The notes under the pieces are model-generated. The model did not search any database. It saw nothing but the letters and a program-made list of their open reading frames with translations, and was not told the DNA's origin. Shown piece by piece: positions 9,072-62,299 of a DNA stretch of 64,000 nt. Location of the stretch: positions 5,688-69,687 of the forward strand of contig CAZTBI010000001.1 in the NCBI GenBank assembly GCA_964612055.1. The letters run 5' to 3'. The number at the start of each line of letters is the position of its first letter. Positions within the stretch are counted from its first letter, which is position 1. The DNA comes from an uncultured Bdellovibrionales bacterium. GTDB lineage: Bacteria > Patescibacteriota > Minisyncoccia > Moranbacterales > UBA1568. Position numbers and translations under genes: made by a program.

Positions 9072-9127
9072 AGGTCAGCCGAAACTGGCTAGGAGAGCTT
9101 TTTTAGACATAAAAAAAGACCCACAGG

Positions 9128-9199
9128 GGTGGCCAGAGGGAATCGAACCCTCATTCATGGTACCACAAACCATTGTCCTGCCATTGAACGATGGCCACC
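9128..9199 (-). tRNA. tRNA-His (anticodon GTG) with genomically encoded G-1
   Basis: acceptor GTGGCCA/TGGCCAC, extra 5' G, discriminator C, loop TTGTGGT. Confidence 0.8.
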
Positions 9200-9222
9200 C
9201 CTCTAAGTCTTTTTATCCTCTG

Positions 9223-9294
9223 TGCCCTCGGTTGGAATCGAACCAACATCAACGGCTTAGAAGTCCGCGGCTCTATCCATTGAGCTACAAGGGC
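9223..9294 (-). tRNA. tRNA-Arg (anticodon TCT)
   Basis: acceptor GCCCTTG/CGAGGGC, loop CTTCTAA; one 31-39 mismatch. Confidence 0.65.
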
Positions 9295-9313
9295 GTCTCC
9301 AAATTTCTGAGGG

Positions 9314-9386
9314 TGGGTGTAGCAGGATTCGAACCTGCGACCGTTGGCTTAAGAGGCCACTGCTCTACCAACTGAGCTATACACCC
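9314..9386 (-). tRNA. tRNA-Lys (anticodon CTT)
   Basis: acceptor GGGTGTA/TACACCC, loop CTCTTAA, T-arm GCAGG-TTCGAAT-CCTGC. Confidence 0.8.
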
Positions 9387-9450
9387 TCTATTCAAAGCAA
9401 AAAACGTCGCTTTGGAACGTGTGTCGATTGTAACAAAAAGGCAAGAGTGA

Positions 9451-9495
9451 GTCAATAAAAATGGAAGGGGCTCGCAAGTGGTGTTCTTGCGAGCC
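9451..9495 (-). terminator. intrinsic terminator on minus strand
   Basis: 10-bp stem GGCTCGCAAG/CTTGCGAGCC; on minus strand followed by TTCCATTTTTATT. Confidence 0.55.
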
Positions 9496-9499
9496 CGGT

Positions 9500-9903
9500 T
9501 GAGAACCGACACGAGGTCGGGTGAATGGAAGGCGAGGTTCTTCCTCGCGGTCCGTCAGGTGACGCCGGTCGAAGCAGCGTTCTGGCGGTCCAGCGGCTGG
9601 ATTGCCGCAGGCTTCATCTTGGCCATGGCCCAGCGCGGGTTAGGCCGGCGCCGCGGTGGCCGTGCCCTGGTGCGGGCCGGCGCCGATCAGCGTGTTGTCG
9701 AAGTTCATGGCGGCCATCGGCACGCCCAGCAGGTCGATCGTGGAGCAGTTCACCGAAGCGGTATGGACAGGGGAGGTCCTTAGAGTCCGGTTGGAGCGCA
9801 TAGCGCACCTCACTTTCTTTGCAAAGTTGATGACACCACAACGAATACCACGAGGGTCTATCAGTGACCAATGCGGTTCCCGAAGCGGCAGGGTAGACAC
9901 CAA
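9500..9903 (-). pseudogene. high-GC (about 68%) foreign gene remnant with GC3-saturated reading frame
   Basis: frame ...IDLLGVPMAAMNFDNTLIGAGPHQGTATAAPA* has G/C at essentially every third position; followed by a second GC3-rich mini-ORF MAKMKPAAIQPLDRQNAASTGVT. Confidence 0.4.
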
Positions 9904-9970
9904 ACATGATATCCATTCTGCCGCCTAGGAATCTAAAAACCTCTGAAATCGTCTTAAAGAGCTAAATACT

Positions 9971-9999
9971 TTTATACACCCAAAGAGTATTTTTGTCAA
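9971..9999 (-). promoter_or_regulatory. sigma70-like promoter TTGACA-N17-TATAAA reading leftward into the high-GC islet
   Basis: reverse complement of 9971-9999 gives TTGACA-aaaatactctttgggtg-TATAAA. Confidence 0.5.
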
Positions 10000-11339
10000 G
10001 GGTGGATAGCCTTGTAATCTTTCCACTGTTTTTCGGACCAATCTTTGGGTTTAGTGGTGTAGATAGTCTCTTGGCCTGGGTGCGGGAAGAGGCTTGGAGA
10101 CTTATAGTTACTCCAGAAGCTGTCACGGATGAAGTTTTGGCCGGTAGCGTTGTTTACTTCTTGGGTGAAGACGGTTTTCATGCTGCCATCTGGGTTCCAG
10201 GCGAGGATATGGGGACCATCGACAGCAACGGTACGACCATCTCTTGTTCCGAAGAAGCGGAAAGTGAGGTCATAGCCATCAATACTCGATTGCATGAGGA
10301 TATAACCAGGAGTGTTATTCATGAATGCTAGGTCAGGCTTCGGGATATAGATGGTGGCGTCCATGCCGTAGGGTTTGTAGTACTGGACCGGGTAGGCATG
10401 ATTGCGGCGCTCGGTGATCTTGAGGCCGCTATAAATAGCGGCACGAAAAACAGTGCTTGAGACTTGGCAGATACCGCCACCGAATTCTGGAGTGGTCTGA
10501 TTGTTCTTGATGACGAGCTCTGGCAGGTAGCCATGTTCGCCGTCGACTTCGCCCAGGTAGTCAACAAAAGAGAATTCTTGGCCGGGAGCGATCAGGATAT
10601 TTTGAAATTGCTGTAAAGCACGATTGATATTGTAGATACGGTTCTTCGGGGAGCCTTTGAAGTTGGTTTTCCCCTCGCCGACCAATTCTTTCAGGCCCAA
10701 ACGTTCCCGGTCAGTGCTGACGATGGTCGGTTTGGCGACTTCGGTCGGAAGTGTCAGGGATAGCGAGAGGTTGTTTGTATTTTCTCCGAGGAGGGTATGG
10801 AGGATAAGGGCTGTGCTTTCGTTTTCATCAAGCAAGCGACCGAGTTTTTCTGGCTCGCTCACGATAATCTGATTCTCTGGTCCGACTCCAAAGATGGCAT
10901 CTTTTGGTTCTTGGTTGATCTGTGGAGCGAGCGTGGCAACAAAGCTGCGGATATTCTCTTCATTTACGGTTTTCACCGAGCGGATCGCCATGTGTTCTCG
11001 AGCTCCGCGAGAAAGAGAGAAGACGCAGTACAGAGCGTCGGTCGGACAGTAGCTGGTATCCTCTATTTCTGAAGGAACTGTATTCCCCGCGACCAGTTGT
11101 GTATCGGTTTGAAACCAAGAAGCAAAATCAGAAGCAGCCAGAGTTTGCTTGTAGTCAGAAGCAATGATTTCTATAGACAGGGGACCGCGATCAATGGCTC
11201 CGTGCGCAGCAGGAGAGAATGAAAAAGCTCCCGCGGCCAGACCGAGGAATGTCAAGGAGAGTAAAGAAGTAGAACGAAAAGAGGTCATAGAGAGAAAAAG
11301 GAACGCCGACCCCATCGAAACGGAACCGGCGAAAGACAT
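9996..11339 (-). CDS. VanW family protein with signal peptide
   Basis: GGGICQVSSTVFRAAIYSGL; start moved from the TTG extension to ATG 11339 (MSFAG...) to avoid overlap with the hsp20 gene. Confidence 0.65.
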   Translation of the reverse strand: MSFAGSVSMGSAFLFLSMTSFRSTSLLSLTFLGLAAGAFSFSPAAHGAIDRGPLSIEIIASDYKQTLAASDFASWFQTDTQLVAGNTVPSEIEDTSYCPTDALYCVFSLSRGAREHMAIRSVKTVNEENIRSFVATLAPQINQEPKDAIFGVGPENQIIVSEPEKLGRLLDENESTALILHTLLGENTNNLSLSLTLPTEVAKPTIVSTDRERLGLKELVGEGKTNFKGSPKNRIYNINRALQQFQNILIAPGQEFSFVDYLGEVDGEHGYLPELVIKNNQTTPEFGGGICQVSSTVFRAAIYSGLKITERRNHAYPVQYYKPYGMDATIYIPKPDLAFMNNTPGYILMQSSIDGYDLTFRFFGTRDGRTVAVDGPHILAWNPDGSMKTVFTQEVNNATGQNFIRDSFWSNYKSPSLFPHPGQETIYTTKPKDWSEKQWKDYKAIHP

Positions 11340-11361
11340 ATCCCGCAGAAGATGGGCCGCT

Positions 11362-11892
11362 TTAGAATCCGCGTACCTGTATTTTTTTAGTCTTGGTGGT
11401 GTCAGCTTTCGGGAGACGAATCGTGAGAATACCGTTTTTGAGAGAGGCGTCAGCCTTTTCTGGAATAACATCGACTGGCAGGAGGACGGAGCGGGAGAAA
11501 GATCCCCAGTAACATTCTTGATAGTAATAGTTTCCATTTTCTACCACTTCCTCGTTCTTGCGCTCGCCTTTGACGGTCACCATATCATTGTTGATCGAAA
11601 CATCGAGATCTTCTGGTTTTACTCCAGCGATAGTCGACTTGATGACGATATCGTTTTCGGTCTGGTAGACATCGATGGTCAGTTGTCCTTCGGCGCCATC
11701 GCTATCGTTTTGAGGGAAGGATGATTGAGCCCAGGACTCTTCTTCTCGGACAGCAAAAGATGTCGGTTCCTCTCGCATAACAACAGGAGACTCCTCTTCT
11801 TCGGTATAGACAGGGACCTCATTGAAATCGCTCCCTTCGACACTATTGGCGCCAGTCAGGCGTTCGAAGAAGGACTTTTTTTGTTTTGTCAT
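11362..11892 (-). CDS. Hsp20/alpha-crystallin small heat-shock protein
   Basis: alpha-crystallin domain (IAGVKPEDLDVSINNDMVTVKGERK...GSFSRSVLLP...GILTIRLPK). Confidence 0.8.
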   Translation of the reverse strand: MTKQKKSFFERLTGANSVEGSDFNEVPVYTEEEESPVVMREEPTSFAVREEESWAQSSFPQNDSDGAEGQLTIDVYQTENDIVIKSTIAGVKPEDLDVSINNDMVTVKGERKNEEVVENGNYYYQECYWGSFSRSVLLPVDVIPEKADASLKNGILTIRLPKADTTKTKKIQVRGF

Positions 11893-33638: not shown

Positions 33639-35060
33639 ATGTTTTTTCCTCTGTATCGAGGCAAGATAGCGTTTGTGGTTATCGTAGGATCACTGGTAAC
33701 AGTGGGTCTGGTGGCCGCTACCGGACTGTATTTTCTCGAGAATCGTGCTTCGGATCAGGCATTGAAACAAGAGGTTGATACGAAGCAGGGCGAGACCCCG
33801 ATTACGTTCAGTGAGCCACTTTCTGGAAGCGGCGTGTTTAACTCTGATATGATCGATGTCGTGAGGGAAGAAAGGATAGAGGAGGGTGATGCGAGCAGCG
33901 CTGACTCCGAGTCTGGTTCTCAGAGTTTGTCCTATGTACTCCCCGAGGCTACAGATTGGAACGAAGTACCATCGACTCCTGCAGCAACAGTAGTGGACGA
34001 CAACACTACCTCTGATGGTTCGAGTACTGTGAGTCCTGATCATAATACCGTGTATCGTCTGAGGACGCAGGGGGATAAAATATACTATCCTTCTGGAAAA
34101 GAAGCGATGCTTCGCGGTTTTACTTGGGGAGCATGGGATACTACGCGGTTTCATGACGCCGACCGTAATGCGGGAGAAGGAGCAAACACAGTGCGTATTG
34201 TACTGCGCTGGTGGGGAAAATATTTTGACGATAGCGTCGATAGTCGTGACGATGATGCTCCTGGAAACATAGATCGAGAACATTTAGCGGAGCTTGATCG
34301 TATGATTGAACAGGCTTCGGAGAAAGGGTTATGGATAGACTTGGCTATTGATTCTGATTGCGGACAGAGTGGTTTGCAGCAAGACCCGATTGGTACCCAG
34401 GCCTATTGTGATCCGAGCGGAAAATATGGTTCTGCGGGACATAATTTTTGGACGGATCCAGAGGCTCGTGCCCGCTTCGTAGAGACCTGGAAATTCGTTG
34501 CTGATCGCTACAAAGACACCCCGTATATCGGTATGTTCGAGCTTTTGCCTGAGCCGAATCCTATTGCTTTTCCTGCAGCCAAAATATCGGAATTTTATCA
34601 GGAGCTTATAGCAGTGGTTCACCCGATTGATTTGCGCACCCCGTTTCTCATCGGTAGTCGAGTCTACATGATTAAGCTAGTGGAATCGGCATACCTGAAT
34701 ACGGGAGTGCCTATCATTTATACTGGGAACTTGTTTGCTCATCCAGAAATAGGGGCCTATGAGGATGTCATGTACGACTTGGAGTATCGACTCGGGCATC
34801 TGACTGATTTTCGAGAGAAGTACAATGTCCCGATCTTCGTCCAGCAGACCGGAGTTCGTTCTGTGGATGATCCTGGGGAAGTCTATACGAATGCTGTTTT
34901 GGCGCTTCTCAATAAAAACAGTGTTGGTTGGGATTGGTGGGAGTACCGACAGCAGGGTCCCTACCCGGGTGGCTACGGTATCTGGTATGCGAAAGGCGAT
35001 GGAACATGGATAAAGAAGGATGCTGTGCTGAAGGTCATTTCTAAATATTTCAAGGAGTAG
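33639..35060 (+). CDS. glycoside hydrolase family 5 (cellulase-like), N-terminal TM anchor
   Basis: GH5 (beta/alpha)8 pattern with NEP catalytic acid (FELLPEPN); acidic S/T-rich linker. Confidence 0.65.
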   Translation: MFFPLYRGKIAFVVIVGSLVTVGLVAATGLYFLENRASDQALKQEVDTKQGETPITFSEPLSGSGVFNSDMIDVVREERIEEGDASSADSESGSQSLSYVLPEATDWNEVPSTPAATVVDDNTTSDGSSTVSPDHNTVYRLRTQGDKIYYPSGKEAMLRGFTWGAWDTTRFHDADRNAGEGANTVRIVLRWWGKYFDDSVDSRDDDAPGNIDREHLAELDRMIEQASEKGLWIDLAIDSDCGQSGLQQDPIGTQAYCDPSGKYGSAGHNFWTDPEARARFVETWKFVADRYKDTPYIGMFELLPEPNPIAFPAAKISEFYQELIAVVHPIDLRTPFLIGSRVYMIKLVESAYLNTGVPIIYTGNLFAHPEIGAYEDVMYDLEYRLGHLTDFREKYNVPIFVQQTGVRSVDDPGEVYTNAVLALLNKNSVGWDWWEYRQQGPYPGGYGIWYAKGDGTWIKKDAVLKVISKYFKE

Positions 35061-35072
35061 AAATATCTTACG

Positions 35073-36488
35073 ATGTTTCCTTTTTACCAAAGTAGAACAA
35101 TCTTTGTTGTAGTTGTTGGGTCCCTGGTCACGATCAGTCTTGTTGCGGCTGCCGGTTTTTATTTTCTCGAGAATAAAAAAGCAGAAGAGGCGATCAAAGA
35201 GCAGCAGGTTGCCAATGAAGAAATGCAAAAATATATTCGAAACGGAAGCGTCCTTCCTGGAGGTCAGCAGCCGAATTTTGGATCGACTGGTGACGGCACC
35301 TCTTCGGATGGGAGTAGTGGTACTCTGGGAACTGATGGTTTACCGTATACGTTGCCCGAAGCGACTGATTGGACCGAAGTAGGAAGTGGAACAGATACGC
35401 TCACAGACGACTTGTTGACTGATCCTGACTCTGATACTGACACTGATTCTGAAACAGACTCGAATCGGTTAACAGTGAAAGGGGATAAACTTTACGATCC
35501 TTCTGGGCATCAAGTAACGCTCCGTGGATTTAACTGGGGTTGGTGGGGAACGGCTCAGGAGCAAGATGGAGCTGCTAACAAGGATCAAGGAGCGACGGCT
35601 GTTCGTATGCCTATTCGTTGGTATTTTGAAGGGACAAAGAATGATATCCGAGAAACCGGCGGTACCTGCAATATCTCAGCTGATGGTTTAAAAGCGATTG
35701 ATGCCAATATCGCTTGGGCTACAAAAGAGCATCTTTGGGTGGTGTTGTTTATGGGGTCAGATCTCGGTGCTGGAAATTCAGATGATAATTATTGGACAAA
35801 TCCGGAACTCAAGGCGGAATTTAAGGCCACGTGGTTGTGTTTGGCGCAGCGCTACAAGAATGTGCCGTACATTGCTGCCTACGAAATCCTTTCCGAGCCG
35901 CATCCTAAAAAATCATACACTAACAATGACCCAGAGGGCGCTGTCAAAGCTTTCTATGAAGAAATGATTCAGGCTATTCGGACAGTGGACGAGGACACGC
36001 CGCTTATGATTGGGCCAAATGATCATTATGAAATTTTACAGCTTCCTGGTCTCTATACAACGGTAGATAAAAAGATTATCTACACCTTTAACTTTTACTA
36101 CCCAGCAGAATACGTGAAAGAGACGAAGGATGGGAGTGGTCATACGTACCGTTACCCAGGCAGTCTCACTCTGAAGGATGGCCAGGTCGTGACGAATGAC
36201 AAAGCCTATCTCGAAGATATGCTCAAAAATGGTACTGATTTTCGAGATGATCACGATGTCCCGATTTTTATCAATCAGGTAGGTATTGCCTCAGATGTCC
36301 CAGATGCCAAGGCTTATATCACTGATACGCTTGATCTCTTTGAAAGCTATGGTATCGGTTTTGCTTATTGGACATATCGAGTGAGAGGGACTATCAATGA
36401 CATGGGCATCTATTACCAAGATCCGAAAACCAATGTTTGGAGCGTGAAGTCTGACTGGCTGACGCTGATCTCGGACTATTTCGATTAG
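35073..36488 (+). CDS. glycoside hydrolase family 5 paralog, N-terminal TM anchor
   Basis: tandem paralog of the previous gene; YEILSEPH (NEP motif). Confidence 0.65.
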   Translation: MFPFYQSRTIFVVVVGSLVTISLVAAAGFYFLENKKAEEAIKEQQVANEEMQKYIRNGSVLPGGQQPNFGSTGDGTSSDGSSGTLGTDGLPYTLPEATDWTEVGSGTDTLTDDLLTDPDSDTDTDSETDSNRLTVKGDKLYDPSGHQVTLRGFNWGWWGTAQEQDGAANKDQGATAVRMPIRWYFEGTKNDIRETGGTCNISADGLKAIDANIAWATKEHLWVVLFMGSDLGAGNSDDNYWTNPELKAEFKATWLCLAQRYKNVPYIAAYEILSEPHPKKSYTNNDPEGAVKAFYEEMIQAIRTVDEDTPLMIGPNDHYEILQLPGLYTTVDKKIIYTFNFYYPAEYVKETKDGSGHTYRYPGSLTLKDGQVVTNDKAYLEDMLKNGTDFRDDHDVPIFINQVGIASDVPDAKAYITDTLDLFESYGIGFAYWTYRVRGTINDMGIYYQDPKTNVWSVKSDWLTLISDYFD

Positions 36489-48584: not shown

Positions 48585-48965
48585 ATGAAAAAAACATTGA
48601 AAGGATTTACGCTGATTGAACTTTTGATCGTTATCGCCATTATTGGTATTTTGGCATCGATCGTGTTGGTAAGTTTGAGCGGTGCTCGTGTAAAGGCTCA
48701 AAAAGCAGCATTTAAAGCTGAAGTAGCTGGCGCGACTGCTGGTCTTAATATCGGGTGTGATGATGCTGATACTGTTACATTTGTAGAACCGGCTGATACT
48801 GCAACAACAGACTGGGCTGCTTTTACGGGCACTCCAAGCTGTGGAGCGGCAGGTGATGGTACGTTCTCTATCGACGCTGTGCCTTTGGCAGCTGGTGTTA
48901 TTGCGGATGGCTGTACTGGAGCAACAGTAACAGAAACAGGTGCTGATTTTACAAATTGTCCATAA
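48585..48965 (+). CDS. type IV major pilin
   Basis: AAGGAGGTGA RBS; class III signal MKKTLKG|[17 protein letters not shown]; two Cys near C-terminus. Confidence 0.8.
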
Positions 48966-49002
48966 TCTCTCGTATCATTTAAATCAAAGGGAGGTGAATC
49001 TT

Positions 49003-49362
49003 ATGAAAAAAACATTAAAAGGATTTACGCTGATTGAACTCTTGATCGTTATCGCGATCATCGGTATTTTGGCGTCGATCGTGTTGGTAAGCTTGAGCAG
49101 CGCTCGAGGTAAGGCTCAGTTGGCAGCATTTAAAGCTGAAACAGCTGGTGCTGTGGCTGGACTTCTTATTGTATGTGATACAGGCAATATTACGCTCCCA
49201 AACGATACTACAACTACGAATTGGGGGGCAATAACTAACCAGAGTTGTGGTCCAACAAGAGGTGGTGGATTTAACGTTACAGCAACCCCGATTAATGCGG
49301 GTATTGTCTGTAATGCTACAGTGAGTGGTACTGGAACCACGTACGTTGGAGCAGGATGTTAG
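49003..49362 (+). CDS. type IV major pilin paralog
   Basis: AAAGGGAGGTGA RBS; N-terminal about 50 aa nearly identical to the upstream pilin, C-terminal divergent. Confidence 0.8.
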
Positions 49363-49380
49363 TGTCTTGCAATAAAGCTT

Positions 49381-49415
49381 TTAAAACAAGGGCGTAATGC
49401 CCTTGTTTTATCTTA
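49381..49415 (+). terminator. intrinsic terminator after pilin pair
   Basis: ACAAGGGC-GTAAT-GCCCTTGT followed by TTTATCTT. Confidence 0.7.
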
Positions 49416-49517
49416 TAGATCACGCTTCAGTACTTAATGTTCGTTGTTCAAGAGACGGGTCTATGGTATTCTAAGAGTACTAATACTCCCTTTAACGGGT
49501 AGTTTATTTTTAGTATT

Positions 49518-51191
49518 ATGACCATACCAAGGGTACTCTCCCAGAGTCTGGGAAGAATTTATCGGCTGTTCGTATCGAGTACTGCCCTTAGGTTTTTTTT
49601 TGTTTTTATTTTTTTCTGCCTCTTTTTTTCGTTTTACCTCTTTTTCTATACTTTCACCTCTACTGATGACCAATTCTTCAATGTAAGATTGGCGCAAAAA
49701 ATCAGCGTCGAGGGGCTTAGTATTCTTCAAAACTTCAATGAATTTTCTGAAGTAACTGCCCGTCCATGGGTTTTTAATATTCTTTTTTATTATCTCCTTA
49801 TTCCTTTTACGTGGTTTTATCCTCTTGAACTAGGGATTAAGGTCTTTGCTGTAACTAGCTTGGCGTTTACATTTACCGTCATCTTCTTTTTTCTTGAAAA
49901 AAATAATATTAAAAAGTCGTTTCTTTGGTTGTTATTAGCTGTTGGTTTTTTCTTTACCCCTCCTGATCTCTGGCATTTTTTAATGGCACGTGCCTTTGTA
50001 TTGGTGCCAGCTTTACTTATCCTCCTTCTCTATTTTTTACAAATAAAGAATTATGGAGCTCTTTTTTTTCTATCCTTCCTTTCTTTTTTTCTCCACACAG
50101 CAACTTTCTTTTTGCCGCTGGTAGTAGGAATAATCTTTTGCGTTTTTTCTTGGCAAAGTACAAGACGTTCAGTATTGTTTTCGTTGTTGAGTGTTGTAGG
50201 CGGAACTGCCGCAGCGCTTCTTCTTGGCGCTCTTTTTATCCCGGGTTTTCTTCCCATTGTGTGGAATTTCTGGGATTCTCTTTATAGAATTGTAGTATCT
50301 TTTCATGTATCAAGTTTCGTGCAAATTGATGAAGGAATGGAAAGTTATCCGACGACGTTGTTTGATATTTTTTCACAGCACGCGATTTTGATCGCGCTTC
50401 TTATCATGTTCACCGGTTCGTACGTAGCACGTATTTTTGAGGCGAATCGAAGAAGGGTATCTTTTGGAAATCCTGTGCAGCTCACCTTGATGGCGCTTTC
50501 CATTCTTTTTTTATTGGGATCATTTATTACTAAGCGTAACCTGGATTTTTTCTTCGTCTTTTCTAGTCTATTTCTGCTGCTGGCTCTCTCTGAATTCTTT
50601 GAAACTATAAAATTCAATGTAAAAAGAATACATATTTTTTCTTTAGGGGTGGTTATTTTCGTGGCTCTCGCCTCTCAATTGTTGGCTATTATGGATATGC
50701 TTGCTGTCTCTTCTGATTATGCAAGTATCAAAGGAGCCGCTCAATGGGCGAAAGAGCATACAGAAAAAGGCAGCGTGGTCTTCAATCCTACGATGAATTT
50801 TTTTCCAACATTTTATTTCTATAATGAGGGTCATAATAAGATGATTGTCGGTATTGAGCCGCGAGATTTTTATCAGACCAATTCAAGGAAATACTGGCTC
50901 TGGTATAACCTCTCTGCTTATGGAGTGATTTGCGGAGAGCAAAAGTGCGCTAGAGAAACTGCTTTGCGTGACGCGATGCTACAATCTTATAAAGACCAAT
51001 GGTACAAGGAAAACGGAGAAAGAGTGAGGGATCTTCTTCTGAATGAATTTTCAACGAACTTGATACTTGTAAGGCCTGATTTTATTGCTTTACAGCCATT
51101 GTTGCAAAACAGTCCTTCATTTGAAGAGGTCTACGCTACGCCGATAACGAAAACATATACTCTGTATCGTATAAAAGAAATTGATAAATAA
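49518..51191 (+). CDS. GT-C-fold-like polytopic membrane protein (ArnT/PMT/TfpW-like glycosyltransferase candidate)
   Basis: about 12-13 TM N-terminal domain plus about 130-aa soluble C-terminal domain. Confidence 0.4.
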   Translation: MTIPRVLSQSLGRIYRLFVSSTALRFFFVFIFFCLFFSFYLFFYTFTSTDDQFFNVRLAQKISVEGLSILQNFNEFSEVTARPWVFNILFYYLLIPFTWFYPLELGIKVFAVTSLAFTFTVIFFFLEKNNIKKSFLWLLLAVGFFFTPPDLWHFLMARAFVLVPALLILLLYFLQIKNYGALFFLSFLSFFLHTATFFLPLVVGIIFCVFSWQSTRRSVLFSLLSVVGGTAAALLLGALFIPGFLPIVWNFWDSLYRIVVSFHVSSFVQIDEGMESYPTTLFDIFSQHAILIALLIMFTGSYVARIFEANRRRVSFGNPVQLTLMALSILFLLGSFITKRNLDFFFVFSSLFLLLALSEFFETIKFNVKRIHIFSLGVVIFVALASQLLAIMDMLAVSSDYASIKGAAQWAKEHTEKGSVVFNPTMNFFPTFYFYNEGHNKMIVGIEPRDFYQTNSRKYWLWYNLSAYGVICGEQKCARETALRDAMLQSYKDQWYKENGERVRDLLLNEFSTNLILVRPDFIALQPLLQNSPSFEEVYATPITKTYTLYRIKEIDK

Positions 51192-51194
51192 TGT

Positions 51195-52235
51195 ATGGAT
51201 TCTCAGTTACGTATTATCGTGATTGGAGGTGGATGGGTAACCGAGAATAGGCATTTGCCTGCTTTAAGAAAAGAGAGGCGTATCTTGCTTCAGTCTGTAA
51301 TAAGCAAGAATGTCGATCGGGCTGAATTTCTCAAAAAGAAATTTTCTGCCAAGACATATTTTGGCGGGGATGGAGTGGATTTCTCACAGGTACTCCAAGG
51401 TTGTGATGCGGTAGTGATAGGATCGGACCCATTTTCTCATTATGAAATTGCCAAACAAGCCATTGCTTTAGGTAAGCATGTTTTAATGGAAAAACCGCTG
51501 ACGTTGTCGGTGGTAGAGTCGGCCGAATTGGTAGGGTTAGCTAAAGAGAAAAAGATACGTTTTGCGGTGGTGCATAATTTCCAGTTTTCCCAATCAGCCT
51601 CTGCTCTGAAAGAAGATATAGAGAAGGGCAAACTCGGAGAGATCCGGTCTTTGGAGGCAAAGCAATATAGTAACGAGAAAAGAAGACTGCCAGTTTGGTA
51701 TGAGGATTTGCCCTGGGGTCTTTTTTATGATGAATCGCCGCATCTTTTGTATCTTCTTGAGATGGTAGGAGGAAAACAAAGCCTTCAACATTCTCAGGTG
51801 CTGTTTCGATCAGGGGTCACTACGCCTGTGTTGGTGGAAGGTCTTTTAATAGGTGAAACAGGAATACCTTCGGTGCTGAGTATGAACTTTTCTGCTTCAC
51901 TTTCTGAATGGTTCCTTATTGTTCATGGATCAAAACGCACCGGTATACTTGATATTTTCCGGGATACTTACTTTTCTCTCCCAAATGACGGTAAACACAC
52001 GCCCAAGGATATTTTCCGGACTTCATGGCTCGTCTTTTTTGGGCATTTTACGGGAGTTGTAAAAAGTGGAATCAAGGTATTGAGAGGGGGCTATCTTTGC
52101 GGTAATGAAGAAGTGGTCAAGAGATTTGTTGATGCTGTTTTGGATAACAGGCCGCTGGGGACTCTGGATGCTGAAAACGGACTGCGGATAAACGCTTTGC
52201 AACATGAAATAATGGAGCGCTCATTTCATCTATAG
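51195..52235 (+). CDS. Gfo/Idh/MocA family NAD(P)-dependent oxidoreductase
   Basis: Rossmann IVIGGGWVTENRHLPAL and EKP motif. Confidence 0.8.
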   Translation: MDSQLRIIVIGGGWVTENRHLPALRKERRILLQSVISKNVDRAEFLKKKFSAKTYFGGDGVDFSQVLQGCDAVVIGSDPFSHYEIAKQAIALGKHVLMEKPLTLSVVESAELVGLAKEKKIRFAVVHNFQFSQSASALKEDIEKGKLGEIRSLEAKQYSNEKRRLPVWYEDLPWGLFYDESPHLLYLLEMVGGKQSLQHSQVLFRSGVTTPVLVEGLLIGETGIPSVLSMNFSASLSEWFLIVHGSKRTGILDIFRDTYFSLPNDGKHTPKDIFRTSWLVFFGHFTGVVKSGIKVLRGGYLCGNEEVVKRFVDAVLDNRPLGTLDAENGLRINALQHEIMERSFHL

Positions 52236-53380
52236 TGTCTATGCTTGCAACGAAAAAGAAGGTGTTGGTAGTGGCTACTCATTTTCCTCCCCACACAGGG
52301 GGAGTAGAAAAATACACCCTCGACTTTTTTTCAGTATTAGGACAGGAATATCGAAATCTCGACATCAGTATTCTTTCCCTGCAAACCGCCAAAGCACCAA
52401 AGCGTGAAAGGATAGGGGTGCTAAATGTGGTGAGGGTTCCATGTTTTGGATCAGATATTAATCCATTTTTTTCTCCTAAAAAAGTCCAGGGAGCTTTAGA
52501 GGACATGGATTTTTCTTCTTTCGATCTCGTCATTACCCAATGCCGGTATTATCTTTTCACTGGATACATGGTCTTTACAGCGCGGCGTAAAGGAATGCCT
52601 GTGTTGCACATCGAGCATAATGCCGGATACATGCTTCACAAGAACCCCCTCATTACTTTGATAGCGAGACTGTACGATGTTTTTATTGGTAGAAAAGTTT
52701 TGAGTAAGGCGACGTCTATTGTTGCGATTTCTGAGAGCGTGAAAAAATTTCTTAAAGAAAATTTCAAGATAACGGGTGCTATTGAAGTGATTCCTGGCGG
52801 CATACAGACAAAAGAGTGGGTCGGTTCAGAATCTCTTTCTGATACAAAAACGTTTGTGTATTGCGGAAGGCTTATTCGTGAAAAGGGCGTTTCGATCCTT
52901 TTGGAAGCATTCGAAATGTTGCAAAATAAGTATCCGGAAACTTCTCTCAAGATTCTGGGAGATGGTCCTGAGATGGGGCTTCTAAAAAGACAAGTTTTAG
53001 AAAAAAAATTGGAGAAACGGGTGGAGTTCTTTGGTGTAGTATCAAGCGATTTTATAAAGAATCTTTATAAAATAAAACCCGTCTTTGTCAATCCTTCATT
53101 CTATGCAGAAGGTTTTCAAATCGCTCTCTTAGAAGCAGTAGCGAGTGGATTACCGATTATTACTACTTCAGTCGGCGGGGCAGGGGAATTGCTCGAAGCA
53201 AATAGGAGTGCCCTTTTTGTTGTTTCTCGGGATAAAAAATCTCTTTTTTATGCCATGGAAGAGTATTTGCTTTTTCCACAAAAAGCAGATACGTATAGCT
53301 CTGTCGCTTCACGGAAGGTGAAGGAATATTTTTCGCAAGAGAAAATGGTTGAAAAGTTCTACCGATATGTTTTTTCATAG
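52235..53380 (+). CDS. family-4 glycosyltransferase (GT-B)
   Basis: EGFQIALLEAVASGLPIITTSVGG (E-X7-E motif). Confidence 0.8.
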   Translation: MSMLATKKKVLVVATHFPPHTGGVEKYTLDFFSVLGQEYRNLDISILSLQTAKAPKRERIGVLNVVRVPCFGSDINPFFSPKKVQGALEDMDFSSFDLVITQCRYYLFTGYMVFTARRKGMPVLHIEHNAGYMLHKNPLITLIARLYDVFIGRKVLSKATSIVAISESVKKFLKENFKITGAIEVIPGGIQTKEWVGSESLSDTKTFVYCGRLIREKGVSILLEAFEMLQNKYPETSLKILGDGPEMGLLKRQVLEKKLEKRVEFFGVVSSDFIKNLYKIKPVFVNPSFYAEGFQIALLEAVASGLPIITTSVGGAGELLEANRSALFVVSRDKKSLFYAMEEYLLFPQKADTYSSVASRKVKEYFSQEKMVEKFYRYVFS

Positions 53381-53756
53381 AAATCTTCAATTTTTTCGTT
53401 TTGTTGTAATCGGAGGTTTTTCTTATGGATTAAGTCTTCTCTTTTTGATATTTTTGATAGAAATTCTTGCCCTTCCTTACCTTGTAGCAACAGCACTTGT
53501 CTTTTTTGGTATCAACGGTTTAAGCTTTTTTATGAATAAGAGGTATACTTTTTTATTAACAGGGGGTCTTTTCCAAACAGAGCTTCTTCGATATTATGGA
53601 ATCATGCTTCTCAGCTTGATTCTGAATTTGGCTGGAATGTATATGTTGGTAGGGATTCTGCAGTTTTCTATAGTCGTAGCGAGTATAATTGTGTCAGGCG
53701 TTCTTTTATTTTTTAACTATTTTTTTCATAAAAATTTTACTTTTCGTACCAAATAA
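53367..53756 (+). CDS. GtrA family protein
   Basis: four TM; FFRFVVIGGFSYGLSL; overlaps the GT4 stop. Confidence 0.6.
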   Translation: MFFHRNLQFFRFVVIGGFSYGLSLLFLIFLIEILALPYLVATALVFFGINGLSFFMNKRYTFLLTGGLFQTELLRYYGIMLLSLILNLAGMYMLVGILQFSIVVASIIVSGVLLFFNYFFHKNFTFRTK

Positions 53757-53760
53757 TTTT

Positions 53761-54510
53761 ATGGCTCAGTACGATATTTTCTTTCAGAACGAACATCCAA
53801 AAATAGCTCAGAGATTTTTAACCTGGCTGAATTTTTCTTTGTTTCAGTTTCTTAAAAGGAACATTGTTTCTAAAGAAGCAAGCAAGGTGCGTATCTTGGA
53901 GATCGGTCCTGGGAAAGGATACTTTTACCAAGCAATATCGAAAGCAAAAAATGTTTCTTATGTGGCATGTGACCGAAACATTTCTTTCCGTCAATCTTTT
54001 CCAGAAGCTGAATTTTACCTTGCTACAGCGCCTTCCTTTCCTGAAAACATCGGTACTTTCGACATGATTTACGCATCTTATGTAGTGGAGCATCTGAGTG
54101 ATGGATTGGCTGTGGCAGAACTTCTCCGCGGTTGTCTGAAACACCTCAATCCTGGTGGGATTGTAGTTATAACTTGTCCAAATGCTTTGGCGCAGAAGTT
54201 TGAATTTTGGAATATGGATTATACCCATCGATATCCTACAACCGCACGAAATATACACATGGCTTTTTTAGAAGCCGGATTTTCTAGCACGGAGATATAT
54301 GAAATATCTGGATTGTTGACGTTCCCAGGCTTTACTTTCAGGCCATTTCAGTGGTGTCTCAAAGTGGTATTGTTTTTTTATCGTTACAGAGTGATGCATT
54401 TTTTCTTTGGCTGGATTTTGAAAAAGAAATTATACGAATTGAATAACTCTTTCTACCGATTATATTGTCTAGTAAAGCAGGAAAATTTACTGTGTATTGG
54501 TAAGAAATAA
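53761..54510 (+). CDS. class I SAM-dependent methyltransferase
   Basis: motif I LEIGPGKGY; ATG 53761 follows the GtrA stop. Confidence 0.7.
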   Translation: MAQYDIFFQNEHPKIAQRFLTWLNFSLFQFLKRNIVSKEASKVRILEIGPGKGYFYQAISKAKNVSYVACDRNISFRQSFPEAEFYLATAPSFPENIGTFDMIYASYVVEHLSDGLAVAELLRGCLKHLNPGGIVVITCPNALAQKFEFWNMDYTHRYPTTARNIHMAFLEAGFSSTEIYEISGLLTFPGFTFRPFQWCLKVVLFFYRYRVMHFFFGWILKKKLYELNNSFYRLYCLVKQENLLCIGKK

Positions 54511-54514
54511 AACT

Positions 54515-55660
54515 ATGACAGAAGTTTCTGTTGTTATTCCTTGCTTGAATGAGGCAAAAACTTTGCCTATCGTTATTGATATGGCCAAAAGCGGCCTGTC
54601 GAAAGTTTCGCTTTCTGGAGAAATAATGATCGCTGATAACGGTTCAGATGATGGTTCTCAGGTTTTGGCGGAATCACTTGGTGCCCGGGTGGTTCCTGTG
54701 AAGAACAGGGGGTATGGCAATGCTCTTGCCACGGGAATTCTTGCTGCAGAAGGAAAGTATATTATCTTTGCTGATGCCGATGGTTCATATGACTTCAGTC
54801 AGCTTCCTGTCTTTATTGAGGCTTTACGAAAGGGCGCCGATCTTGTTATTGGCAATCGCTTTGCAAGGAAGATGGAGAGAGGTGCTATGCCAGCGCTTCA
54901 TCGTTATCTTGGAACTCCTGTGCTTACTGCGCTTATCAATTTCTTTTTCAAAACAAAAATCTCTGATTGTAATTGTGGCATGCGGGGGATAAAAAAAGAG
55001 TCTTTTGAAAAAATGCAGATTCTTTCGACAGGCATGGAATTTGCTTCAGAAATGGTTATTAAGGCTGGATTACTCGGTATGAAAGTGGTAGAGGCACCGA
55101 TTTATTTTATGAAAGATAAAAGAGATAGAGAACCTCATCTGCGTACTTGGCATGATGGGTGGAGGCATCTGCGTCTCATTCTTATCTACGCCCCTAACTA
55201 CCTATTTATTTATCCAGGAAGCATCCTTTTTATTTCGGGAAGCATCCTACTTTTTATGCAGCTTTTTGGGCCGGTGATTATCGGACCGATGTATATGGAT
55301 CTTCATTTTATGATTCTTGGGCTTATGCTGAGTGTTCTAGGTCTTTCTATTTTTCTTATGGGAGCTACTATCAAGCAATTTTCTTATCAACACGACTACT
55401 ATTTGGAGGATTTTACCGTCACTTTTTTTGAAAGAAGTTCTTTTGAAAAGAAGCTTGTTCCAGGAACTCTTTTTTTCGCTATCGGGACAGGGTTGGCCGT
55501 GGGGATCTTTATTCGTTGGATTGGCGGTCATTTTGCCAATCCTAACATGCTGCGAGGAGCACTTTTTAGTCTCTACTTTATGTCTACTGGTTTGCTTGTT
55601 TCCCTTTTCTCTTTTCTTGAGCTTGTGATGAGAATACAGAACAAAGAAAAAAATAAATGA
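54515..55660 (+). CDS. polyprenyl-phosphate sugar synthase-like GT2 (DPM1/ArnC-like) with C-terminal TM domain
   Basis: VVIPCLNE, DNGSDDGS, D-x-D and four C-terminal TM helices. Confidence 0.8.
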   Translation: MTEVSVVIPCLNEAKTLPIVIDMAKSGLSKVSLSGEIMIADNGSDDGSQVLAESLGARVVPVKNRGYGNALATGILAAEGKYIIFADADGSYDFSQLPVFIEALRKGADLVIGNRFARKMERGAMPALHRYLGTPVLTALINFFFKTKISDCNCGMRGIKKESFEKMQILSTGMEFASEMVIKAGLLGMKVVEAPIYFMKDKRDREPHLRTWHDGWRHLRLILIYAPNYLFIYPGSILFISGSILLFMQLFGPVIIGPMYMDLHFMILGLMLSVLGLSIFLMGATIKQFSYQHDYYLEDFTVTFFERSSFEKKLVPGTLFFAIGTGLAVGIFIRWIGGHFANPNMLRGALFSLYFMSTGLLVSLFSFLELVMRIQNKEKNK

Positions 55661-55939
55661 TTTTTTCTTTGTTGCCGCTGGGGCCCTGCTCTAGGAGTCG
55701 CGTGCCTACAGAACATTGTTGATTTCGGTCTCCCTAGGGATTTCGAACCTAATCGGAACCGATCTTTTTAGAGGCTTCTTGGTGCAGGTGATAGCCATTT
55801 GGCGCTTTTTTTTCTAATGTTGGCAATACGCATCTGTGGTAACGGTATTTTGAACGTAACCGAGCTTTCTTTTGGATTTTTCTTAGTATATACTATGGAT
55901 GTATTTTATCTTTTTTAACCAATAACCTTTCAGAACGGT

Positions 55940-59760: not shown

Positions 59761-60558
59761 ATGCATATATTTCTTTTTTTCATTCTCGGACTGGCAGTCG
59801 GGAGTTTTCTCAATGTTTTAGTCTATCGTTTGAAGGATGGTGAGACATTGGGTGGGCGTTCCTACTGTCGACACTGCAAGCATCAGATTCGCTGGTATGA
59901 TAACGTGCCGCTTCTGAGTTTTCTTGTTCTTGGGGGAAAGTGTCGTGATTGCAAAGAGCGACTTTCTTGGCAGTATCCACTCCTTGAGGCAGCGACAGGT
60001 ATTGGTTTTGTATTGGTAGGAAACTTCTTCTTTGTGCTTGAGGATCAAATGACGTGGATTGAAACTGGGTGGCTTCTGGGTATTGTCGCCTTGTTTCTGG
60101 CTATTGCGGCTTATGACCTCATCAATATGGAAATCCCGCTGTCACTTCTGGTGGCGAGCGCTTTGTGGACAGGGGCATTTCTTCTTATGACGTTGTATAT
60201 GGAGCCATTGCCGAGAGAGTTGTGGTGGGAAGCTCGTCTGGCGCAAGGTGTGCTTGGTGGTGGTGTGATAGCGCTTTTTTTCTTTGCTCTGGTGTACGCT
60301 TCCAAGGAAACATGGATGGGATGGGGAGATGTCTGGCTCGGTGGGGTGGCAGGGATGATTGTAGGACTACCGGCAGCACTTCTCATGCTGACGCTTTCTT
60401 TTGGCTTCGGTGCACTTTTTGGTCTCGGTATGATTGCGTTTCATAAGAAGGGGATGAAAAGTCAGATTCCTTTTGCTCCGTATTTGGTACTTGGTACTCT
60501 TCTGACGCTTTTTCTCCCGAAGATGCTTCCTCAATTGATAGGACAGATTTTGCTGTAG
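59761..60558 (+). CDS. pilD: prepilin peptidase/N-methyltransferase (A24 family)
   Basis: CxxC...CxxC zinc-binding tetracysteine and A24 TM core. Confidence 0.85.
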   Translation: MHIFLFFILGLAVGSFLNVLVYRLKDGETLGGRSYCRHCKHQIRWYDNVPLLSFLVLGGKCRDCKERLSWQYPLLEAATGIGFVLVGNFFFVLEDQMTWIETGWLLGIVALFLAIAAYDLINMEIPLSLLVASALWTGAFLLMTLYMEPLPRELWWEARLAQGVLGGGVIALFFFALVYASKETWMGWGDVWLGGVAGMIVGLPAALLMLTLSFGFGALFGLGMIAFHKKGMKSQIPFAPYLVLGTLLTLFLPKMLPQLIGQILL

Positions 60559-60576
60559 TCATTTGCTCGTGACGAT

Positions 60577-61119
60577 TTGGAAAAACAAAAAGAAGCTATG
60601 CAAAAAACATCAAAAACTCTCAAAGCCTTTACCTTGATTGAAATACTGATCGTGATCGCTATTATCATGATCATGTCTGCGGTAATCTTGACGAACTATA
60701 GCAGTAGTCGTTCAGCAGAGCAGCTGGAAAGCGCGGCGAGAGAAGTGGAGGCAGCCGTGAGAGAGGCGCAGAGCTACGCTTTAACTGGCTACCAGGGAGT
60801 GGTCGCTACCGACCCCTGTCGCTTTGAGGTTCGATGGAGTGGGTCTACTTACTCAGTGACGTACTGGTATAAGAATGCGAGTGATGTTTGTGATCAGCGA
60901 CTGGTTTTGGGATCATACGCAGTTAGAAATGGCGTCACCTTTAATTCAGGTAGCAGTTTTTATTACACGCCGCCGTATGCCACAGCAGTTTTCTCCCCTC
61001 CGCCACCACCACCGACGGGTCTGCCCATTGTTTTGAGACAAGCGAGTACCTATCACACGGTCTGTGTGTATGCGAGGGGTGTCATTAATAATCGTACTGG
61101 GCAGTCAACTTGTCCGTAG
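60577..61119 (+). CDS. minor pilin / pseudopilin
   Basis: KAFTLIEILIVIAIIMI prepilin motif; true start may be ATG 60598. Confidence 0.6.
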   Translation: MEKQKEAMQKTSKTLKAFTLIEILIVIAIIMIMSAVILTNYSSSRSAEQLESAAREVEAAVREAQSYALTGYQGVVATDPCRFEVRWSGSTYSVTYWYKNASDVCDQRLVLGSYAVRNGVTFNSGSSFYYTPPYATAVFSPPPPPPTGLPIVLRQASTYHTVCVYARGVINNRTGQSTCP

Positions 61120-61125
61120 TCTTAT

Positions 61126-61695
61126 ATGAGTATCATGCGGTTAAAACAAAAGACGACATTGAAAGCGTTCTCGATTCCTGAGGTGCTGCTTTCTATGTTT
61201 GTACTGTCGATTGGTCTCGTTACTATCGTAGCGGTGATGGCGGGATCACTCCGTCATTCGTATGATACGAGTGAGCTGATTGTAGCGACCGGCTTGGCCC
61301 AGGAGGGCGTGGAACTGATCCGTAATGCCCGTGACAGTGGGTTTACTTTGGGATCTGGTAGAGGCTTCGATTATTTTTCTGATACTAATAAATATTGCCG
61401 AGCGCGGTATAATAGTTCTCAAACTGCTAATATCGACTGTTTTTCCAACCCGGACCCAGCGAATCGTTATTACCTCCAATACAGTGGCGGATTGTATGGT
61501 CACTTTAATGCCACGAAGGAGCGTTACTCCCGTTTCATTTATGTAGATTATGATGCGACCAACAAGACGGCCTTGGTGCGGAGTTTCGTCTATTGGGATA
61601 CCGCTGATATTCGACCAGCCGATGGTGATCCGGCGACTTGCAATGCTTCTTCGTCTTGTGTCTATACCGAGATATTTTTGACCGCTTGGAAATAG
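61126..61695 (+). CDS. minor pilin-like protein (PilV-like?)
   Basis: degenerate prepilin motif KAFSIPEVLLSMFVL with Glu+5. Confidence 0.45.
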   Translation: MSIMRLKQKTTLKAFSIPEVLLSMFVLSIGLVTIVAVMAGSLRHSYDTSELIVATGLAQEGVELIRNARDSGFTLGSGRGFDYFSDTNKYCRARYNSSQTANIDCFSNPDPANRYYLQYSGGLYGHFNATKERYSRFIYVDYDATNKTALVRSFVYWDTADIRPADGDPATCNASSSCVYTEIFLTAWK

Positions 61696-61699
61696 TTGT

Positions 61700-62290
61700 A
61701 TGAAAATTTTTTTGAGAAAATCATATAAGGGACTGACACTCATAGAAGTGCTGGTTTCGCTGTTTATTTTTTCGATCATGATGGCGGCGACAGCGCAAAT
61801 TTTTACCAAGGCTTTTTCTGGGTATCGGAATACTCGAGCCATACAGCGTGATGTGGAAAATGCTCAGTATGCTCTAAACCTTATTTCCAAAGAGCTTCGG
61901 ACGAGTACGGTCGTCGCGCCACTTACTGGTCCTTTTCCGAAACCTTTCGCTTCTGTAAAATTCTATGACCATTCACAAGGGCGCTGTTTTTACTATCGTA
62001 TTGATACTACTGCTAAAGCTCTTCAGGTGGCGTCAGCGCTTTCCACAGGACCTGCTGATTGTACGACGAAGAATGTTGGGACCCCTGCCACGATTAGTAC
62101 TGGTACGGTTTCTGGATCATTTCAGGTGACGCCATCGTGTAGTAGCGTGGTAACGTCTGGGTGTACTGGAGCGAAACGGGCAGGTAAGGTAACCATAAGT
62201 CTCGATATCTCAGAAGGAGCTGGTTCTACTCATAAAGCTCAAATTCAAACGACCTCCTCGCTGCGCGATTTCGGATACATTGGCTTTTAA
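61700..62290 (+). CDS. minor pilin-like protein (PilW-like?)
   Basis: KGLTLIEVLVSLFIF prepilin motif. Confidence 0.55.
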   Translation: MKIFLRKSYKGLTLIEVLVSLFIFSIMMAATAQIFTKAFSGYRNTRAIQRDVENAQYALNLISKELRTSTVVAPLTGPFPKPFASVKFYDHSQGRCFYYRIDTTAKALQVASALSTGPADCTTKNVGTPATISTGTVSGSFQVTPSCSSVVTSGCTGAKRAGKVTISLDISEGAGSTHKAQIQTTSSLRDFGYIGF

Positions 62291-62299
62291 CGTTATTGT

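Follow-up and report, generated by a model that had tools for sequence, protein, structure and literature searches.

A GC3-rich, hypervariable small gene with a structured leader downstream of vanW in Candidatus Moranbacteria, probably native rather than imported

Organization of the locus

A short GC-rich transcription unit lies at positions 9458-9999 on the minus strand of a 64,000-nucleotide stretch of DNA (the window; contig CAZTBI010000001.1), between a vanW-like gene and a cluster of tRNA genes. The genome belongs to Candidatus Moranbacteria, a lineage of the Candidate Phyla Radiation (CPR), in line with an earlier reading made from the sequence alone. That sequence-only reading took the unit for a foreign high-GC fragment, captured beside the tRNA cluster, in which the remnant of an open reading frame (ORF) was bracketed by its own promoter and terminator. 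The unit is indeed self-contained, but its first ORF is intact, and the evidence collected below points to a transcription unit native to Candidatus Moranbacteria and confined to that lineage, probably a hypervariable small gene whose third codon positions are locked to G or C, and not imported DNA. Its parts are as follows, related loci being denoted here and below by L numbers.

9994-9999, minus strand: -35 box TTGACA, containing the TGA stop (9998-9996) of the upstream vanW-like gene, read directly
9971-9976, minus strand: -10 box TATAAA, 17 nt from the -35 box, with GGGTG just before it
9802-9964, minus strand: 5' leader of ~163 nt, 48% GC, with three hairpins predicted by minimum free energy (MFE) folding
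9870-9938, minus strand: leader hairpin of ~22 bp (GGCGGCAG...CUGCCGC), its base closed by UCC/GGA and followed by GGGAAC, with covariation
9808-9811, minus strand: ribosome-binding site GAGG, 6 nt 5' of the ORF1 ATG
9640-9801, minus strand: ORF1, intact, 53 aa (MRSNRTLRTSPVHTASVNCSTIDLLGVPMAAMNFDNTLIGAGPHQGTATAAPA, then stop), ATG at 9801, GC content at third codon positions (GC3) 0.91
9555-9626, minus strand: ORF2, tentative, 23 aa (MAKMKPAAIQPLDRQNAASTGVT, then stop), in the +1 frame relative to ORF1 and starting 13 nt past its stop, with G or C at 19 of 23 third positions
9497-9554, minus strand: 3' untranslated stretch (the type A 3' module, common to L042) with two short hairpins, GCGAGG...CCUCGC at 9548-9532 and CCGAC...GUCGG
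9458-9496, minus strand: intrinsic terminator, an 11-bp stem (9496-9468, 8 G-C pairs) with a 7-nt loop and the T-run CTTCCATTTTT

The consensus promoter TTGACA-N17-TATAAA that had been proposed is present at these boxes, but its -10 box is short of the usual final T. The predicted promoter thus matches at 6/6 positions in the -35 box and 5/6 in the -10 box across a 17-nt spacer, and for want of that T our promoter scan did not list the site. TTGACA is kept at or just past the vanW stop in relatives. The -10 box is identical in the same-species loci L042-L045, and at the homologous position L040, L014 and L016 have TATAAT or TATACT within the pattern TTGACA-N12-GGGTG-TATAAT/TATACT. The predicted transcript runs from ~9964 to 9458, a length of ~505 nt, and ends in the G+C-rich stem-loop and U-run that define an intrinsic terminator, as had been called.

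In relatives, AAGGAG or GGAGG stands at equal spacing from an ATG-CGC (Met-Arg) start. ORF2, the second GC3-rich mini-ORF of the sequence-only reading, is present at 9626-9555 and can be taken as coding only tentatively. Its start motif, M-x-K-K-P, is seen again after ORF1 in L042, L046, L003, L043, L011 and L040, and L010 keeps the ORF2 nucleotide motif without an ATG. Another frame considered, of 100 aa and opening in the hairpin loop (9916-9614), was rejected because leader indels in L046 break it.

Base composition and codon periodicity

The jump in GC content is confirmed, and the window has no stronger one (0.67-0.69 against 0.47). In 200-nt segments the G+C fraction is 0.69 at 9500-9699 and 0.68 at 9600-9799, and the 300-nt peak of the entire 64 kb, 0.67, lies at 9501 (mean 0.472, standard deviation 0.045). 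The run of third-position G or C that had been noticed is confirmed as well. In the minus-strand frame closing at TAA 9642-9640, codons 18-53 have G or C at 36/36 third positions, and the best 37-codon stretch of the ORF1 frame reaches 37/37, a value equalled by 1/20,000 mononucleotide shuffles of 9497-9801. Codons 1-17 (12/17) are less extreme. ORF1 overall, at 0.91, stands apart from the other window ORFs (0.29-0.66; ceiling 0.66 for ORFs of at least 120 aa and 0.61 for those of at least 200 aa), so that both base composition and codon usage are atypical for the window. The codons favoured are GCC, GGC, CCG, CTG and ACG, with NNC used and NNT never. This is the usage of a high-GC bacterium and was a principal ground for proposing capture.

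The G/C periodicity runs on 3' of ORF1 in another frame, even beyond the ORF2 stop. Across 14 loci ORF1 GC3 is 0.78-0.93 in host genomes of 45-56% GC, and the same loci have leaders of 0.43-0.63 GC and 3' regions of 0.53-0.62 GC. The window's pilin, Hsp20 and Clp genes have GC3 values of 0.38-0.54 (0.38-0.56 when the valyl-tRNA synthetase gene is included). Translational selection for G/C-ending codons was dropped as an explanation on these low values, which make a weak test because the window has no ribosomal protein gene.

Related loci and synteny

Two neighbours bound the unit:

9996-11537, minus strand: vanW-like gene (Pfam VanW, E = 5e-41, plus PG_binding_4), upstream of the unit on the same strand
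9427-9455, minus strand: promoter TTGACT-17-TACAAT of the tRNA-Lys/Arg/His operon, which bounds the unit and is not part of it; the tRNA genes lie at 9126-9386

Relatives of vanW were collected from 29 genome loci and 10 metagenome loci, and those with informative names are all Candidatus Moranbacteria (Moraniibacteriota), CPR. A stretch of 64-74% GC directly follows vanW in 14 of the 29 genome loci, and also in metagenome loci. By blastn the relatives show no similarity to the GC-rich part of the window, only the tRNA promoter being conserved in the intergenic region. In every unit-bearing locus examined the unit is 3' of vanW on the same strand, either directly or past a cheY gene (L003, L042-L045). 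Adjacency to tRNA genes had been read as a sign of capture, but several relatives have the tRNA cluster in inverted orientation and still carry the GC-rich ORF downstream of vanW; the unit thus travels with vanW and not with the tRNAs. In L006, L012, L017, L022, L024, L027 and L031 the unit is absent and tRNA-Lys follows 70-190 nt past vanW. On the vanW tree the unit occurs over most clades with scattered absences, and this spread at a matching position counts against a recent arrival.

The ORF1 search returned three relatives (P0017-P0019) of 53-55 aa, independently called as genes, with 84-87% identity and E = 2e-18 to 3e-15. On their contigs, L042-L046, which come from five different sequencing runs, the ORF lies between vanW and tRNA-Lys, with a cheY gene intervening after vanW in some cases. 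L042 and L043 are 96-97% identical to the window over prsW-hsp20-vanW and therefore belong to the same species. L042 aligns without a break to window positions 10003-9338, across both boundaries of the unit, at 93.8% identity; because same-species loci align continuously in this way, the chimeric assembly that had been raised as a possible artefact is excluded. The sequence-only reading had also allowed that a relative at the syntenic position would speak for an ancestral gene. Such relatives exist, both as these same-species homologs and as homologous or analogous GC3-rich ORFs of distant Moranbacteria with the same promoter and leader hairpin, and they weigh against a foreign fragment. The lone ORF1 indel among close relatives is 6 nt long and in frame, and four distinct same-species alleles, although many substitutions separate them, all keep an open ORF1 of 53-55 aa.

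In L003 a more remote homolog of ORF1, 47.6% identical across 42 aa (E = 4e-5 against a small database), precedes an ORF2-like M-I-A-K-K-P peptide. At the equivalent position L003, L010, L011, L016, L034, L040 and L023/L025/L037 have short ORFs of 36-99 aa. L007, L008, L009 and L018 have a long form, a GC3-rich ORF of 150-170 aa on the vanW strand (cut by the contig end in L018). This ORF is preceded by a TTGACA-17-TACAAT promoter at the vanW stop, by ~130 nt of leader and by the ribosome-binding site GGAG. Its N-terminus resembles a weak signal peptide with an AxA site, and the motifs GAVCVLVP, LKLLxGSTMNGRYVD.AAAKKLLAD and HHxEPRR are kept across deep divergence. Full-length members of the long-form family have 136-170 aa, and in-frame deletion variants occur in L019 and L021. 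An apparent further relative, P0030 (555 aa), was rejected as a spurious translation of a repeat.

Structured leader

The leader folds with an MFE of -56.4 kcal/mol, z = -3.08 against dinucleotide shuffles, and L042-L045 share it at almost 100% identity. When 20 leaders were folded by MFE, 16 of them gave a long hairpin of 19-31 pairs, beginning 45-100 nt past the -35 box; the equivalent hairpin of L034 was overlooked by the automatic pick, and in L023, L025 and L037 a hairpin is not clearly shown. The hairpin sequences diverge widely among leaders, and the structure is kept. In an RNAalifold analysis of a MAFFT alignment of ten leaders, 14 of 22 consensus pairs have compensatory changes. The fraction of paired cells in the hairpin is 87.7%, a value attained by 0/500 shuffles (76.5% paired); sliding the partner columns lowers it to 38-50%.

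A covariance model (R1), built from the short-form and the L018/L019/L021 leaders, gives the minus strand of 9938-9870 a score of 71.1 bits, compared with 27.3 bits for the plus strand. Over 362 kb its matches are confined to 18 element-bearing loci, each with a single forward-strand site and the reverse-strand echo of that site. The long-form leaders of L007, L008 and L032 are matched at the same position with 28-30 bits (E ~1e-6). The whole transcript, which contains two cUUCGg tetraloops, folds with z = -4.6 on the minus strand against z = -2.5 on the plus strand. The GC-rich ORF with the 3' part alone folds no better than shuffled sequence (z = -1.5, against -3.1 for the leader), and the structured element is therefore the leader and not the GC-rich segment. 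No Rfam family matches the leader hairpin or the unit even at E <= 10, the best score in 9380-10020 being 15.5 bits against a gathering score of 50; at gathering score Rfam 15, whose models cover RNase P, 6S and SRP RNAs, riboswitches and leaders, finds only tRNAs in the window, and ARAGORN finds no transfer-messenger RNA (tmRNA).

The conserved UCC/GGA base and a GCAGCAG core suggest a specific binding partner. The hairpin probably controls mRNA stability or processing, its 22-bp duplex being long enough for RNase III. Stem-loops in the 5' untranslated region (UTR) set mRNA stability or RNase III processing in the E. coli ompA 5' UTR and in the pnp and rnc leaders. The leader described here resembles these in its long, near-perfect hairpin (19-31 bp) near the 5' end of the mRNA and in the conservation of structure over sequence, although it has no Rfam match and the likeness comes from sequence and predicted folding.

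Variable cassette and substitution rates

The flanks of the window, L042, L043 and L046 are 95-97% identical (90% between the window and L046), and these loci carry three unrelated 3' modules and differ in their ORF1 C-termini. Among the same-species genomes promoter and leader are almost identical, and it is the C-terminal end of ORF1, the spacer before ORF2 and the whole 3' module that vary. Type A is found in the window and L042, a second type (L043-L045) is related to the modules of L011 and L040, and a third is found in L046. The L046 module is 88.6% identical to that of L003, yet the vanW genes of this pair are only 80.7% identical. Similarly, L011 and L040 have 3' modules of 89-91% identity next to unrelated leaders and ORF1 bodies.

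A separate observation concerns this last pair. Between L011 5930-6130 and L040 1015-1200 the 89-91% nucleotide identity of the module (motif CGTAACGGAGAAAGCTGCC) exceeds that of the vanW coding sequences (78%), despite frame-breaking 1-nt indels. Either a function of the module as a 3' RNA element or a recent exchange between the two lineages could lie behind this.

Variable columns in ORF1 fall on codon positions 1, 2 and 3 in the proportion 10/14/5, and the codon differences comprise ~10 non-synonymous and 2 synonymous changes. Recent changes seen in single genomes are mostly from G/C to A/T, as recent capture would lead one to expect. For the long forms the ratio of non-synonymous to synonymous divergence (dN/dS) is 0.73-1.51 at dS of 0.22-0.73, estimates made by the NG86 method on short, compositionally extreme sequences and hence rough. 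The adjacent vanW genes of the same genome pairs have dN/dS of 0.04-0.23 and, except for the closest pair (0.35), dS of 1.5-5.2. The low dS of the long forms is the saturation pattern that arises when third positions are restricted to G or C.

The cheY gene beside the unit

In several relatives a 132-aa stand-alone receiver gene, cheY, lies between vanW and the unit:

L042 2335-2733, L043 2344-2742 and L003 5588-5983: cheY, absent from the window, where the junction corresponds to about 9994-10000

The gene is found in L042-L045 and L003, and is missing from the window and L046. Over its full length the protein is 72-77% (L042) and 86% (L003) identical to CheY of Burkholderiales (Rubrivivax, Ideonella, Aquabacterium and others), and the nucleotide identity is 77-82%. 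The Burkholderiales genes sit in flhDC-motAB-cheY-cheZ clusters of 68-70% GC. To judge from these identities, cheY was plainly acquired from a high-GC member of the Burkholderiales, an inter-phylum transfer into a CPR genome. The proposal that high-GC DNA had been captured at this locus is thus borne out for the slot just upstream of the unit in sister genomes (L042-L045, L003), which evidently accepts foreign DNA, but the donor is of the Burkholderiales and not an actinobacterium, and the window itself has no cheY.

The shared segment is limited to the cheY ORF, the flanks not being shared. We considered the GC-rich ORFs as relics of the donor's cheY neighbourhood (motB or cheZ) and rejected this, since tblastx gave only scattered matches of 30-45 bits on random strands and at random positions, that is, noise.

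GC3 of cheY is 0.92-0.95 in Burkholderiales and 0.72-0.74 in the Moranbacteria copies, where 29-33 third-position changes go from G/C to A/T and only 3-7 go the other way. This fall is the expected decay of a foreign gene toward the composition of its recipient. In the same cheY-bearing genomes ORF1 GC3 is 0.88-0.91. The wide spread of the unit over the vanW tree shows that it long predates the insertion of cheY; and because the adjacent, younger cheY has decayed while ORF1 has held its level, the GC3 of ORF1 is no passive relic and must be actively maintained. Had the unit been captured recently, this difference from a foreign gene next to it would not be expected.

The junction at which cheY is present or absent is a 7-nt repeat, CTTGACA, formed by two -35 boxes, and no other junction repeat was seen. 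Loss of cheY from the window would be the simpler reading, because the outgroup L003 has the gene. The L042 and L043 proteins have altered residues around the conserved T87/A88 region, and the L003 protein is canonical. The Burkholderiales origin of cheY is a possible clue to the host.

Searches outside the lineage

Among 5.8 billion proteins, a word-indexed search with ORF1 found the three relatives given above and no others; the one with a named source is from Moranbacteria, and all three lie downstream of vanW. The long form has 16 relatives in the same search, and an exhaustive profile search against 1.84 billion cluster representatives gives 19. Neither search found a homolog of ORF1 or of the long form outside Moranbacteria. 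Against plasmids and phages, blastn of 9460-9990 gave nothing beyond a chance-level 57-nt match to Streptomyces (E = 3e-3), and viral contigs scanned with the long-form alignment and with ORF1 gave no match.

Pfam, NCBIfam and PADLOC assigned no family to any candidate ORF or long form. The neighbours of the unit are vanW, apbE, hsp20 and prsW, and we saw no integrase among them, no direct repeat of a tRNA 3' end and no repeat of the element in the window. The 64-kb window likewise holds no second copy, donor cassette or paralog of any part of the element and no template or donor repeat of a diversity-generating retroelement, and no reverse transcriptase is found among the neighbours. The vanW product has no exact protein match on record, and contigs found by way of apbE end short of the region. 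We found no prior description of the locus in the literature, its proteins being annotated only as hypothetical.

Other features of the window and of related loci

A second self-contained small unit lies on the plus strand at 1210-1690, with a TTGACA-17-TAATAT promoter, the ribosome-binding site AGGAAGAGG and an 85-aa ORF at 1354-1611 that has no Pfam match, a GC3 of 0.73 and a local GC content of up to 0.645. Its terminator is followed at once by a TTGACA-17-TATATT promoter. The layout is like that of the vanW-linked unit and the composition is less extreme. Also on the plus strand, 239-748 encodes a 169-aa ORF without a Pfam match, whose GC3 of 0.66 is the highest among ORFs of at least 120 aa (GC ~0.6). 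At 48900-55700 there is a block of genes with low GC3 (0.29-0.40, against ~0.5 elsewhere) that includes a methyltransferase gene (53689-54510) and may be a laterally acquired surface-modification island.

Partial tRNA-like copies occur near the inverted tRNA cluster of L007 (6370-6440 and 6615-6680) and also in L041 and L032, split by a repeated GC-rich hairpin of ~45 nt (CCCAGCCCGCAGAAGCTACGCTTCAAGCGTTGCTGGCGGGG); L032 has a different palindrome (CCCTGCCTGCCGGCAGGCAGGG) at the matching spot. These hairpins look like small mobile insertions. Finally, the window contains two tandem genes of the GH5 cellulase family and a type IV pilus cluster that includes a prepilin peptidase gene as well as several genes of N-methyl pilin-like type (33639-36488 and 59761-62806), which fits a surface-attached lifestyle.

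Discussion

As a native gene of Moranbacteria, the unit would work as follows. A sigma-70-type promoter overlapping the vanW stop would drive the transcript. Promoter, leader hairpin and start context form a conserved chassis, and the ORF body and 3' module a hypervariable cassette that is recombined even within one species. The small ORF, of 53 aa here and 36-170 aa in relatives, would be translated into a fast-evolving and probably disordered peptide under diversifying or relaxed selection. Its role is most plausibly one of interaction, with a partner cell, a phage or a competitor, tied to the cell-envelope gene vanW. The near-total third-position G/C is a trait of the gene family, kept up against the AT-ward drift of the genome.

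Such an arrangement is close to that of hypervariable small-protein loci of the contingency or arms-race kind, including effector-like and bacteriocin-like ones, which share the conserved expression chassis and N-terminus, the variable body and C-terminus, the exchange of alleles between lineages and a dN/dS at or near 1. It departs from them in that no processing, export or immunity gene adjoins the unit, no leader-peptide motif is seen, no Pfam, NCBIfam or PADLOC family matches, and GC3 is extreme. A hypervariable small-protein locus with a structured leader is thus a familiar kind of object; what is unusual is the locking of GC3 in mid-GC genomes beside a decaying foreign gene.

Two forces could hold GC3. 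The first candidate is GC-biased gene conversion at a recombination hot spot, which would agree with the mosaic alleles, the raised rate of amino-acid substitution and the GC-rich amino-acid composition. GC-biased gene conversion has been proposed for bacteria, with recombining genes suggested to gain GC3 (Lassalle et al. 2015, PMC4450053). The second candidate, direct selection on synonymous sites or on the mRNA, would account for the third-position peak and for the less extreme first 17 codons. The mouse Fxy gene, after its move into the pseudoautosomal region, is an example of a conversion hot spot, and the genes at such hot spots resemble ORF1 in their near-saturated GC3, raised amino-acid substitution, richness in Gly, Ala, Arg and Pro, and frequent recombination. 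Unlike them, the unit combines a GC3 shift from ~0.5 to ~0.9 with an adjacent non-coding module of modest GC content, and the effects reported for biased conversion in bacteria amount to a few percent, far below this shift. A bolder version, which we regard as rather doubtful, would make the unit a bacterial counterpart of Fxy: a recombination-hot, diversifying small-protein locus in which a GC-ward force, biased conversion or synonymous-site selection, has held GC3 at ~0.9 through the Moranbacteria radiation while the protein changes freely, with Burkholderiales, as the captured cheY suggests, for physical partners (hosts) and the small gene acting at the interface.

Several results weigh against a native, GC3-locked gene of the kind just described, or against parts of it. 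Biased conversion should lift the GC content of the non-coding 3' module as much as that of third positions, yet the module stands at only 0.53-0.62, and the codon selection that accompanies high expression is not seen in the window's pilin, Hsp20 and Clp genes. AlphaFold2 on the long-form alignment gave no confident fold, with a predicted local distance difference test (pLDDT) score of 47.6. The dN/dS estimates are rough, and a non-functional ORF would likewise give a value near 1. ORF2 has a weak ribosome-binding site, and the region 3' of it differs by 1-nt indels between L011 and L040. With hmmsearch on six-frame translations, window ORF1 and the long-form profile do not match at E <= 10; as far as the sequences go, homology across the forms is demonstrable for the chassis and unproven for the ORF bodies.

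Of the alternatives, the one that fares best is that of a dying pseudogene of the 150-170 aa long form, with ORF1 as the N-terminal stub and ORF2 and the 3' region as frameshifted debris. It would explain why ORF1 has 53 aa against 136-170 aa in full-length long forms, why the G/C periodicity continues downstream in a different frame past the ORF2 stop, and why the N-terminal AAM..NF of ORF1 resembles LAAMSTNF of the long form, and it has further points of support in the dN/dS near 1 and the in-frame deletion variants of L019 and L021. We nevertheless think it unlikely. Two-ORF short forms occur in lineages whose VanW is 65-84% identical to that of the window (L003, L010, L011 and L040), and other short forms in L016 (VanW 47%) and L034 (65%); because short forms are found in lineages with such divergent VanW, the short-form state is old, and still the start, the frame and the approximate length of ORF1 have been kept. 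A decaying stub would hardly be open in all four of the distinct same-species alleles, the long-form profile leaves no residual match in any frame, and the high GC3 should have decayed in a neutral remnant in the way that it is decaying in cheY.

The unit might also be a non-coding RNA, a GC-rich small RNA or a housekeeping RNA in which the ORFs are incidental. In genomes of mid or low GC content a GC-rich island is often an RNA gene, and tmRNA, RNase P RNA and 6S RNA offer a parallel to a GC island of ~500 nt with promoter and terminator by tRNA genes, even to a short ORF with a non-polar tail (...TAAPA). The better-than-shuffled folding of the transcript on its own strand, the tetraloops and the covarying leader hairpin would agree with this, as would the dN/dS near 1 and the high nucleotide identity of the L011 and L040 modules across frame-breaking indels. 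On the other hand, the unit has neither a tRNA-like domain nor an ARAGORN or Rfam match, its GC-rich part alone is not significantly structured, and a strict 3-nt G/C periodicity is unexpected for a structural RNA. Ribosome-binding site and ATG are both kept, with constant spacing, the one ORF1 indel preserves the frame, and the peptide motifs GAVCVLVP, LKLLxGSTMNGRYVD and HHxEPRR of the long form have survived deep divergence. Taken together this makes an RNA gene improbable, somewhat more so than a pseudogene.

Recent capture of a high-GC host fragment, its ORFs decaying remnants of the donor's, is very improbable indeed given the native-type promoter, leader and ribosome-binding site, the intact and conserved reading frame, and the lineage-wide distribution, the empty outside searches and the held GC3 reported above. 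The unit shares with tRNA-adjacent genomic islets an atypical composition by tRNA genes, a gene content that varies among close relatives and a laterally acquired gene, cheY, in the adjacent slot, but differs from them in having no integrase or tRNA 3'-end repeats, in its fixed position after vanW across the lineage, and in the want of any outside homolog.

If the unit is, as we think probable, a native gene of Moranbacteria, then a compositional island with seemingly foreign codon usage can be both old and native, and composition alone is no evidence of transfer. The two adjacent high-GC3 genes form a rare natural control, the imported cheY decaying and the native ORF held at ~0.9, so that the maintenance of GC at synonymous sites becomes testable within one locus. 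With this locus an uncultured phylum also gains a small-protein family that had no annotation and a new covarying leader hairpin, and the transfer of cheY from Burkholderiales to Moranbacteria is a concrete pointer to the partners of these episymbiont-like bacteria.

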